From Minisyncoccota bacterium (GTDB taxonomy: Bacteria; Patescibacteriota; Minisyncoccia; Phycocordibacterales; UBA918), in the NCBI GenBank assembly GCA_022841645.1, contig JALHRC010000002.1, forward strand, positions 36,846 through 100,845: 64,000 nt of DNA. The letters are read 5' to 3'. Position 1 is the first letter of the stretch; every line of letters begins with the position of its first letter. This document shows positions 36,985 to 38,265 of the stretch, piece after piece. The notes beneath the pieces were generated by a model, which was given only the letters and a program-made list of their open reading frames with translations, searched no databases and was not told the DNA's origin. Both the position numbers and the translations under genes were made by a program.

Positions 36985-37302
36985 ATGAAAGACTTAATTC
37001 CAAGCATAATTGTCCCTTTGGGATTATGGTACAGCTTCTCTAGTGGTGGCGTAGCTTCAAAGTTACAGCAGGGTGGTGTACCGTTAGATTTTCCAGCTAT
37101 ACTTTATTCTTTGGAAATTATAGAGTGGTCTTTCTTGTTTGTTGTCGTCGCCAACATCATAATGTTAGTTTTAGAATATTTTGCTAAAACTAACCCCCGA
37201 TTACAATCTATTTATCAAATAGTCCAACAGGTTTTAGCATTTACTGTTTTCGTTGTATTTATTGGTGGATTCATATTTCTTGCCTATCTTGGCCTTAAGT
37301 AA
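36985..37302 (+). CDS. Small hypothetical membrane protein (105 aa, about 3 TM), first of three AT-rich cassette-like ORFs between atpG and atpD
   Basis: ATG overlaps the atpG stop. Hydrophobic helices. Codon usage is AT-rich, unlike the flanking atp genes. Confidence 0.5.
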   Translation: MKDLIPSIIVPLGLWYSFSSGGVASKLQQGGVPLDFPAILYSLEIIEWSFLFVVVANIIMLVLEYFAKTNPRLQSIYQIVQQVLAFTVFVVFIGGFIFLAYLGLK

Positions 37303-37307
37303 TACTA

Positions 37308-37353
37308 AGTAGCGAGTGCCTTGTTGGGCTTTCGCTACTCAGTGGTACTGAGT
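37308..37353 (+). repeat. 46-nt structured repeat, copy 1 (AGTAGCGAGTGCCTTGTTGGGCTTTCGCTACTCAGTGGTACTGAGT); two adjacent hairpins
   Basis: Hairpin 1 pairs AGTAGCGA with TCGCTACT (8 bp) around a variable loop. Hairpin 2 is ACTCAGT-GGT-ACTGAGT (7 bp). Located 3' of the first cassette ORF. Three near-identical copies are present. Confidence 0.7.
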
Positions 37354-37362
37354 AAATTACGC

Positions 37363-37695
37363 ATGGAAAAGCATTATCAGTTGCTGAGCACATTATTTCT
37401 ACTAGCACTATTTGTGGTGGCTTCGGAATGGTGGATTATTACATCACTCATATATTTTACTTGCCAAAGCGAAGCAGGGAACGCGTGCACCTTGCTTGAA
37501 ACGTACGCTCCAGTTCGCTATCTTGGCCTTGATTCTTGGTTGTACGTTGTCGCCGGTACGCTACCGATTGCTTGGTTGCTACTCTTGCTATCAAAAAAAC
37601 TTACCCGTATTGATACGCTAATTGGCCTCGTTTCTGTTCAAATACTCTTACTAATCACCGTTGCCCTTGTTGAGTTTGTTCAAAAAGCACTGTAG
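37363..37695 (+). CDS. Small hypothetical membrane protein (110 aa), second cassette-like ORF
   Basis: The ORF track start 37321 is a TTG inside the repeat element. The first ATG, at 37363 (MEKHYQLL...), is preferred. About 3 TM helices. Confidence 0.45.
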   Translation: MEKHYQLLSTLFLLALFVVASEWWIITSLIYFTCQSEAGNACTLLETYAPVRYLGLDSWLYVVAGTLPIAWLLLLLSKKLTRIDTLIGLVSVQILLLITVALVEFVQKAL

Positions 37696-37700
37696 CACCA

Positions 37701-37746
37701 AGTGGCGAGTGCCTTTATGGGCTTTCGCCACTCAGTGGTACTGAGT
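37701..37746 (+). repeat. 46-nt structured repeat, copy 2 (AGTGGCGAGTGCCTTTATGGGCTTTCGCCACTCAGTGGTACTGAGT)
   Basis: It differs from copy 1 by A4>G and a compensatory T29>C that keeps the base pair, plus loop changes. Located 3' of the second cassette ORF. Confidence 0.7.
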
Positions 37747-37779
37747 CACGTCAGACAAGACGTTAAAATCATCTAAGTC

Positions 37780-38214
37780 ATGGATAAGAAATCAACAAAA
37801 AAGTACGACTGGCTAACAAAGTTTCTTATAGATACCGATAGGTTAGATAATCCAAACCTTCCAGTAGCTAAGCAGGAGTACACACCAACACAAAAGTTTT
37901 TTGGGTGGGTACTACTTTTTGTTACTACACATTCATGGTGGATTTCTGCTGCATTTGTATTGTACTTTTGCGAAGGAGCAATAGGTGTTGGATATAGGTG
38001 CACCATTCCAATTGAAGATTGGGCTTTCTTTACCGAATTGTCTACTATCTTCTTTGGTATACCGCTATTATTACCACTATTATTTTACTTTAAATTCTTT
38101 AGTAATTTTTTTAAGAAAATTAATACCCTGACCTTCATTCTTGGCTCGATCTTATTGCTTGTAATTATTTTTAACCTGGTATCAATCTTGTCAAATTACT
38201 TGAACAACCAGTAG
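37780..38214 (+). CDS. Small hypothetical membrane protein (144 aa, about 4 TM), third cassette-like ORF
   Basis: Very AT-rich ORF with hydrophobic helices (FFGWVLLFVTTHSWWISAAFVLYF; IFFGIPLLLPLLFYF; FILGSILLLVIIFNLV). Confidence 0.5.
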   Translation: MDKKSTKKYDWLTKFLIDTDRLDNPNLPVAKQEYTPTQKFFGWVLLFVTTHSWWISAAFVLYFCEGAIGVGYRCTIPIEDWAFFTELSTIFFGIPLLLPLLFYFKFFSNFFKKINTLTFILGSILLLVIIFNLVSILSNYLNNQ

Positions 38215-38219
38215 TGATG

Positions 38220-38265
38220 GGTAGCGAGTGCCTTCCCGGGCTTTCGCTACTCAGTGGTACTGAGT
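38220..38265 (+). repeat. 46-nt structured repeat, copy 3 (GGTAGCGAGTGCCTTCCCGGGCTTTCGCTACTCAGTGGTACTGAGT)
   Basis: The stems are conserved and the loop (TTCCCG) differs. Located 3' of the third cassette ORF, 35 nt before atpD. Confidence 0.7.

Follow-up and report, generated by a model that had tools for sequence, protein, structure and literature searches.

Why should three small membrane-protein genes, each ending in a copy of the same hairpin, stand between the gamma- and beta-subunit genes (atpG and atpD) of an ATP synthase operon? The question is raised by a 64,000-nt stretch (hereafter, the window; positions 36,846–100,845, forward strand) of contig JALHRC010000002.1, belonging to a metagenome-assembled genome (MAG) of a Minisyncoccota bacterium (GCA_022841645.1). 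An insertion at this place is unusual, as a preliminary description of the locus correctly pointed out, since the order of the atp genes is otherwise conserved; the block was proposed there to be a cassette array of the integron attC type or, alternatively, a serially duplicated module. The comparative analysis reported below leads to a different answer: with moderate confidence, the hairpin is interpreted as an intercistronic stem-loop of the atp mRNA, i.e., a native element of the junction and not a mobile-element or integron site, which stabilizes or insulates the 3' ends of the cistrons.

The Hairpin Element and Its Location

The 42-nt core of the element, GCGAGTGCCTTNNNGGGCTTTCGCNACTCAGTGGTACTGAGT, is present in the window in three copies, all in the atpG–atpD block, and nowhere else (0.00 copies are expected from shuffled sequences). 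Likewise, the search with a covariance model (CM) returned these three copies only, at 72–79 bits, the next, unrelated match scoring 14 bits. Hence, the near-identical repeat after each small open reading frame (ORF), as claimed in the preliminary description, is real and unique to this part of the 64 kb, but its length of 46 nt needs correction: the conserved unit spans about 58–63 nt, with the upstream stop codon at an identical position in all three copies, and the exact repeat common to the copies comprises only 28 nt. The 5' arm (consensus AAGTAGTGCTAAG-GTAG...) contains stop codons in two reading frames, so the hairpin ends whichever ORF is located upstream, including atpG itself where there is no small ORF. 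In the window, the 5' arms harbor the stop codons of ORF1 (TAA, 37300–37302, in the outer part of the arm), ORF2 (TAG, 37693–37695), and ORF3 (TAG, 38212–38214). Hairpin 1 possesses the inner stem GTAGCGAG/TTCGCTAC and a self-complementary 3' segment, ACTCAGTGGTACTGAGT, at 37337–37353. The inner stem of hairpin 2 (GTGGCGAG/TTCGCCAC) displays a compensatory A-U to G-C change, which demonstrates a structural constraint acting since the duplication. Hairpin 3 lies directly upstream of the atpD leader, i.e., in the position occupied by the single copy in the relatives.

Apart from the two loci hit in the exact scan below, the loci of the relatives were contigs of close gamma-subunit homologs (one of them, L005, duplicates L004), and the covariance model, R1, was built from 13 elements. 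A single copy was found with this model at the atpG–atpD junction in 10/10 distinct relatives whose gamma subunit is at least 69% identical. The exact scan for a 22-mer of the repeat yielded one match in 185,579 GTDB species genomes (Patescibacteria MAG JAIEOU010000004.1, L001) and one match in JGI metagenomes (L002), both at the same junction; in the whole JAIEOU01 MAG the 22-mer occurs once, and it was not found in viral contigs. Two scenarios raised earlier as adverse to the idea of a cassette unit, namely relatives bearing the same three ORFs without the repeat and a repeat spread genome-wide, were therefore not encountered.

The gene content of the junction varies around this single hairpin. 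An ortholog of ORF1 (43% identity) precedes it in L001, an unrelated ORF of 66–69 aa (family F2) in L002 and L007, another unrelated ORF of 99 aa in L003, three ORFs in L008, two ORFs in L009 (one in common with L008, family F3), and a 64-aa ORF in L010, where the hairpin is a variant one. L004, L006, and L012 lack small ORFs altogether: the hairpin follows atpG directly, with the atpG stop codon inside its 5' arm. Only in the more distant L018 (gamma 66% identical) did the model find no match; its 161-nt spacer contains no small ORF either. Overall, the hairpin is a fixed native feature of the atpG–atpD junction in a subclade of Parcubacteria, neither dispersed nor ORF-borne.

The more distant relatives, L018 (3900–4064) and L012 (3960–4117), feature long atpG–atpD spacers with other palindromes, e.g., AGAAACTTG at the atpG stop in L018 can pair with CAAGTTTCT located 110 nt downstream. 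A structured RNA beginning at the atpG stop may represent a wider theme, with sequences differing by lineage.

Selection on the Hairpin and Its Alternative Folds

The hairpin is under selection. It folds into a long imperfect structure of about 20 pairs with energies from −20 to −36 kcal/mol across the elements. The same 3' 17-mer, ACTCAGTGGTACTGAGT, is shared by 10 of 13 elements, even though the synonymous sites of gamma are saturated between the genomes (pS, the proportion of synonymous differences, 0.6–0.77). In L003, the 17-mer exhibits a compensated pair change; the outliers L010 and L012 differ further. In the alignment of the long hairpin (A2), 88% of the cells are paired, and both sides change in 11 of 20 pairs; these values were reached in 0/500 shuffles, and slid controls gave 25–54% paired cells. 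The inner stems are wholly replaced by other complementary sequences in L004/L006, L009, and L010. A short hairpin within the 3' arm is conserved as well: pairing reaches 98.5% in its core of 5 pairs, two of which covary, and the two bases of the 3' arm that changed in L003 have matching partners in the short hairpin as well as in the 5' arm. The G-U wobbles outnumber the A-C cells (31 vs. 11 overall, 18 vs. 2 in the outer stem), so the sense-strand transcript is favored as the folding molecule. Coming from 13 related sequences and from a structure derived from the same set, these covariation and wobble counts are supportive rather than conclusive.

The minimum-energy fold was the long hairpin in 12/12 sequences tested. 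When the 5' side was held single-stranded in silico through 13 nt past the stop codon (a rough footprint of a terminating ribosome), the 3' hairpin formed in 11/12; the ACTCAGTGGTACTGAGT arm is thus predicted to be capable of forming its own 7-bp hairpin after the unwinding of the 5' arm. The start regions of atpD and ORF3 are predicted to be unpaired with the hairpin closed, and the atpD start, 34 nt downstream, is open in either state. Only the ATG of ORF2, located 10 nt past hairpin 1, is near enough for the hairpin to influence it.

The element matched neither a terminator pattern nor any Rfam family. The terminator scan called no site at the three hairpins, which lack a T-run (the next bases are AAATTA, CACGTC, and CAGTAA). 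The search of Rfam 15 revealed no match in the window at 36500–38800 (cmscan, E up to 10) and no match at the junction in the loci of 11 relatives (E up to 1). Several specific candidates were discarded, too: recoding elements resembling selenocysteine or pyrrolysine insertion sequences (SECIS, PYLIS), as the stops in question, UAA or UAG, have further in-frame stops behind them; a ligand-binding riboswitch, as the inner stem-loop is freely replaceable and there is no conserved internal loop; and a CRISPR array, given the copy spacing of 393 and 519 nt.

The Small Genes and Their Surroundings

The existence of three ORFs of 105–144 aa between gamma and beta (Table 1), reported in the preliminary description, is corroborated by coordinates, shuffles, and gene calls alike: the inter-hairpin segments are 91–97% occupied by their ORFs (reached in 0/5000 shuffles), and ORF1, ORF2, and ORF3 are all called as genes in a public protein collection. 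The ATG of ORF1 begins 1 nt past the stop TAG of atpG, and an alternative TTG start of ORF2, giving 124 aa, falls inside hairpin 1.

Table 1. Features of the atp operon and of the atpG–atpD block (positions in the window; CM, covariance model; MFE, minimum free energy; TM, transmembrane).
Feature	Position	Strand	Description
atpB	32073–32852		Operon gene
atpE	33021–33284		Operon gene
MazG-like extra ORF	33288–33614		Between atpE and atpF
atpF	33617–34063		Operon gene
atpH	34091–34477		Operon gene
atpA	34509–36074		Operon gene
atpG (F1 gamma)	36081–36983	+	PF00231, E 4.8e-80; stop TAG 36981–36983
ORF1	36985–37302	+	105 aa, small membrane protein, family F1
Hairpin 1	37294–37356	+	CM R1 79.4 bits; MFE −28.2 kcal/mol, z −3.3
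ORF2	37363–37695	+	110 aa from ATG, about 3 TM segments, paralog of ORF3
Hairpin 2	37687–37749	+	CM 73.8 bits; MFE −32.6 kcal/mol, z −4.0
Motif B	37749–37771	+	CGTCAGACAAGACGTTAAAATCA, small 4-bp hairpin and A-rich tail, upstream of ORF3
ORF3	37780–38214	+	144 aa, helical membrane protein, paralog of ORF2
Hairpin 3	38206–38268	+	CM 71.8 bits; MFE −31.1 kcal/mol, z −5.0
atpD leader	38266–38299	+	A/C-rich (..CATTACAAACATTCCT), without Shine–Dalgarno sequence, predicted unstructured, similar in relatives
atpD (F1 beta)	38300–39676	+	PF00006, E 1.8e-70
Nucleoside 2-deoxyribosyltransferase-like extra ORF	39685–40074		Between atpD and atpC
atpC	40085–40333		Operon gene

Across the block, the GC content drops from about 0.55 to 0.35–0.43. 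The AT-rich codon usage noted earlier also holds: the GC content at third codon positions (GC3) is 0.32, 0.41, and 0.37 in ORF1–ORF3, respectively, vs. 0.52–0.64 in the atp genes. Amino-acid composition alone does not explain these low values, since atpB, encoding the equally hydrophobic a subunit, has a GC3 of 0.64. The coding strand of the block is T-rich (AT skew from −0.17 to −0.25). The scan of hydropathy with a 19-residue window resolved 2–3 clear transmembrane (TM) segments per protein, fewer than the 3–4 suggested initially; the model of ORF3 obtained with AlphaFold2 from the single sequence is all helical, with five helices, but of low confidence (predicted local distance difference test, pLDDT, 66; predicted template modeling score, pTM, 0.28). 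ORF2 and ORF3 have in common a WWI...C-x7-9-C motif at the end of the first hydrophobic segment (window 37430–37490 and 37930–38000), and its cysteines could, judging by the motif, form a disulfide loop.

ORF2 is paralogous to ORF3 (BLASTP E 3e-4; Smith–Waterman z 10.8), which indicates that the unit of ORF and hairpin was duplicated in the lineage of the window. No relation of ORF1 to either of them was detectable when family F1 was aligned to ORF2 and ORF3 with hhalign. The idea of a serially duplicated module is therefore upheld for units 2 and 3 only. The ortholog of ORF1 in L001 (E 3e-31) was its sole genuine match among 1.84 billion representatives in an exhaustive phmmer search; a 610-aa match proved to be spurious on inspection, being a repetitive protein, and was discarded. 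In another homolog search, ORF1 and ORF3 each retrieved the query alone, so neither ORF1 nor ORF3 has homologs found outside the atpG–atpD junction; no contig encoding ORF3, or the gamma subunit of the window, was on record. Comparison of the small ORFs with Pfam and NCBIfam (13 small ORFs), PHROGs, and PADLOC gave sub-threshold noise only, and the sequence search of the PDB gave no relatives.

According to the proportions of nonsynonymous and synonymous differences (pN/pS; F1 0.37/0.74, F2 0.34/0.77, F3 0.26/0.44), the small ORFs of these three families are under purifying selection. At the same time, for a given genome pair, their nonsynonymous divergence (dN) exceeds that of gamma 3- to 9-fold. 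Pairwise comparison distinguishes at least four mutually unrelated families: F1 (ORF1 and its counterpart in L001), F2, F3, and ORF2/ORF3. In the gamma tree, the ORF-less L004 and L006 nest within the F2-bearing clade (96% identity to L002), which means that ORFs have been lost as well as gained. Overall, the small ORFs are real, lineage-restricted, dispensable, fast-turnover membrane-protein genes.

Another recurrent element, motif B, always resides between two small ORFs (consensus CGTCAG[AT][AC]AAGACGTTAAAATCA). Besides the copy upstream of ORF3, it was found at the internal small-ORF junctions of L008 (1759–1781 and 2081–2103) and L009 (2788–2810). These junctions read AAGTAA-TGAGCC-CGTCAG..., the sequence expected if the palindrome had been precisely excised from AAGTAA[TAC...GGTAC]TGAGTC-CGTCAG. 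Since they share motif B as well, internal hairpins were, as far as the junction sequences tell, probably once present in L008 and L009 and then lost.

Five independent Logan contigs with ORF1 (L013–L017, runs SRR28154519 to SRR28154530) end 2 nt past hairpin 1. The 28-nt exact repeat being shorter than a typical k-mer, this break may reflect strain differences after hairpin 1, and strain heterogeneity downstream of it is possible.

The small ORFs are not the only extra genes of the operon. The MazG-like gene between atpE and atpF is also present in L004 (1212–1538) and absent in L001, L003, and L007; the deoxyribosyltransferase-like gene between atpD and atpC was seen in the window only, and the hairpin follows neither of them. 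In this clade, several junctions of the atp operon seem to be open to gene insertion. Upstream of the operon (window 27750–30927), ORFs with a very low GC3 (e.g., 0.26 at 28613–29092) lie between a minus-strand tRNA-Ala(tgc) and a plus-strand tRNA-Ala(ggc), and beyond them low-GC genes similar to CsoR, MauE, and DUF305 are situated; this region may be a small acquired metal-related island. Elsewhere in the window, Pfam yielded no match to a 2049-aa ORF (378–6527) at E up to 1e-5.

Function, Competing Explanations, and Implications

By analogy with the selective processing and stabilization of RNA (SRPS), the hairpin would define the 3' end of the upstream cistron and protect it. In SRPS, intercistronic stem-loops that lack a U-tract, have energies of −14 to −32 kcal/mol, and are located at the 3' ends of cistrons set the subunit stoichiometry in operons coding for heteromultimeric complexes, e.g., cip-cel of Clostridium cellulolyticum (PMC4423207). 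The hairpins of the atp operon are similarly stable and devoid of a U-tract, they are situated at cistron 3' ends within an operon whose products form a complex of uneven stoichiometry, and, as in SRPS, orthologous stem-loops are conserved in related species while their number changes in evolution. The differences are that SRPS is characterized by a nearby endonucleolytic processing site and a higher abundance of the upstream segment, whereas the atp hairpin is known here from sequence, and that the latter features the upstream stop codon in the stem, the invariant self-complementary 3' arm, and co-duplication with small ORFs.

In addition, the hairpin may insulate downstream initiation from ribosomes finishing the upstream cistron. 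The insulation would matter here because no Shine–Dalgarno-like sequence was found upstream of any of the 14 operon genes (window 31680–40085) and the complementary anti-Shine–Dalgarno motif is missing in about half of Parcubacteria (PMC9297842). The leaders of the operon genes are A/C/T-rich, and that of atpD contains a recurring ATTACAAA motif in common with the relatives. A ribosome that translates up to the stop codon would switch the structure from one fold to the other.

A comparable situation exists in the atp operon of Escherichia coli, where the translational-coupling switch of atpHA relies on an mRNA structure opened by upstream translation. In both cases, upstream translation would remodel an intercistronic structure with alternative pairings; the difference lies in the atpD start, which is predicted to be open and not sequestered. 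Another structured RNA of ATP synthase operons is the ATPC motif (Rfam RF01067), a conserved element of unknown function positioned between the genes of the a and c subunits in cyanobacteria. It resembles the hairpin in lying between ATP synthase subunit genes, but it occupies another junction, and the Rfam searches described above matched nothing at the junction in the window or in the relatives. Literature on genes between atpG and atpD, or on the ATPC motif, yielded nothing relevant.

As to the block as a whole, small genes are lodged in a highly expressed operon, and ORF2 and ORF3 arose by tandem duplication of the unit of ORF and hairpin. The hairpin would have been retained in each unit for the benefit of the preceding cistron; a role tied to that cistron explains the structural constraint on all three window copies. 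The small proteins themselves are, at a guess, membrane hitchhikers or modulators co-expressed with ATP synthase.

A number of points, along with the modest weight of the covariation counts, speak against the interpretation of the hairpin as a stabilizing or insulating element. A stabilizer, an insulator, a processing site, and a coupler are indistinguishable from sequence alone, and, the atpD start being predicted to be open either way, the hairpin does not act by masking it. The inner stem is wholly replaced between L002 and L004 despite 96% gamma identity, which looks more like recombination than like stepwise compensation. L008 and L009 carry several small ORFs but one hairpin each, so a hairpin after every cistron is not obligatory. 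The low GC3 of the ORFs would also be compatible with a foreign origin, and the succession of the three units is taken from a single MAG assembly.

Of the competing explanations, the one that survives best, although it is considered unlikely, regards the junction as a gene nursery: the transcribed and translated T-rich atpG–atpD spacer would repeatedly yield small hydrophobic ORFs de novo, or let them diverge until they are no longer recognizable, and the hairpin would act as a fixed 3' boundary by virtue of its two-frame stops. This is consistent with the orphan status of 13/13 small ORFs (no Pfam or NCBIfam family), with the multiplicity of unrelated families at one site, with their fast divergence, and with the T-rich coding strand, low GC3, and TM-prone character of every product. 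In yeast, T-rich sequence is known to give rise to TM-prone proteins de novo (PMC7005711), and the ORFs described here are likewise T-rich, low in GC, TM-prone, and taxonomically restricted. They differ in that three families have a pN far lower than pS, implying established, selected genes and not noise, and in that no long ORF-free spacer homologous to any of the ORFs was found as a non-coding precursor. The conservation of the internal hairpins of the window is not explained in this way, either.

Somewhat less probable still is the view that the hairpin, being more than an mRNA stabilizer, anchors a hotspot at which ultra-small bacteria repeatedly gain, duplicate, swap, and lose small membrane-protein genes within an essential operon, either via palindrome-directed recombination or through gene birth from the T-rich spacer. 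The variable ORF content and the swaps of inner stems in very close relatives suggest palindrome-promoted recombination or a gene-breeding spacer as a minority possibility. If true, the hotspot would represent a non-integron, recombinase-independent cassette or gene-nursery system between gamma and beta.

The small proteins might also serve the F-type ATPase as membrane subunits or assembly factors peculiar to the lineage, resembling AtpI or AtpZ in function, with the hairpins tuning their stoichiometry. Their placement within the operon, on the same strand and with tight spacing, agrees with this assumption, as do the signs of purifying selection and the lack of a visible atpI upstream of atpB (where a 94-aa ORF with a soluble product is found instead). 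Nonetheless, the assumption is improbable: the genes are dispensable (none in L004, L006, L012, and L018), close relatives have unrelated families at this site, and the rate of their evolution is far above that of any atp subunit. Moreover, the models of ATP-synt_I, AtpZ, and AtpR (PF03899, PF09527, PF12966, and NCBIfam equivalents) did not match any of 13 small ORFs at E up to 0.1–1, nor did PDB chains.

The cassette system favored in the preliminary description, in which the hairpin would be a structure-specific recombination or insertion site (like attC or the ends of IS200/IS605 insertion sequences) capturing, swapping, and losing small-ORF cassettes, is very doubtful. As in integrons, promoterless ORFs are followed head-to-tail by imperfect palindromes, the bulged hairpin resembles folded attC sites, and the low GC3 of the ORFs is in line with such an origin. 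The content of the junction differs sharply in close relatives, too: the F2 ORF is present in L002 and missing in L004, L003 has its unrelated ORF at 90% gamma identity, and L008 and L009, sharing one ORF, are also at 90% gamma identity; the replaced segments start at the atpG stop and extend as far as the inner stem, and inner stems are exchanged wholesale. However, the core sites R'' (RYYYAAC) and R' (GTTRRRY) are absent in 12/13 elements by a regular-expression search of both strands, the GTTGGGC in the variable loop of window copy 1 being there by chance. No IntI or attI was found. In line with the preliminary description, no integrase was found in the 64 kb: none was recognized among 40 other window ORFs scanned with Pfam or among eight proteins of the atp operon and block, and no other recombinase, transposase, or HUH family matched the scanned window ORFs, although a distant intI may lie beyond these 64 kb. 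There is one locus per genome, occurring even without any cassette, no cassette pool is visible (ORF1 and ORF3 being confined to the junction), phage and plasmid collections did not match the block (blastn), and the G-U bias points to a sense-strand RNA. A false lead is thereby removed, an integron-like system not being supported here.

Finally, repetitive extragenic palindromic (REP) sequences and bacterial interspersed mosaic elements (BIMEs) comprise tens to hundreds of dispersed copies associated with RAYT transposases and stabilize upstream cistrons, e.g., in malE–malF of E. coli. Their heads read GT(A/G)G, followed by an imperfect palindrome. The atp hairpin is likewise an operon-internal extragenic palindrome that could plausibly block 3' exonucleases, and the head of its inner stem is GTAG/GTGG in 8 elements, GTAA in L009, and ATAG/GCAA/GCGA in others; it differs in being confined to one operon junction. 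For all its stable palindrome and the REP-like head of eight elements, a generic repeat, be it REP-like, similar to miniature inverted-repeat transposable elements (MITEs), or an intrinsic terminator lying here by chance, is largely refuted and hardly credible, since the covariance model detected the hairpin at this one junction only, both in the window and in 64 kb of the relatives' loci, the 22-mer is single-copy in one relative's genome, there is neither a T-run nor a terminator call, and atpD must be transcribed through it.

With the interpretation of the hairpin as a native stem-loop of the atp mRNA in mind, the outcome can be described as a new structured intercistronic motif together with a hypervariable island of orphan small genes in the ATP synthase operon, the mechanism being inferred from sequence comparison. 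The motif is a patescibacterial structured RNA which, besides having no counterpart in Rfam 15, possesses covariation support and a plausible translation-sensitive alternative fold. It occurs in organisms with no Shine–Dalgarno signals in the atp operon and with almost unknown gene regulation. At the same time, the rigid a-c-b-delta-alpha-gamma-beta-epsilon order turns out to tolerate the island of orphan small membrane proteins, which provides a natural series (0, 1, 2, or 3 genes at gamma identities of 77–98%) for following the gain, duplication, and loss of small genes in an essential operon.

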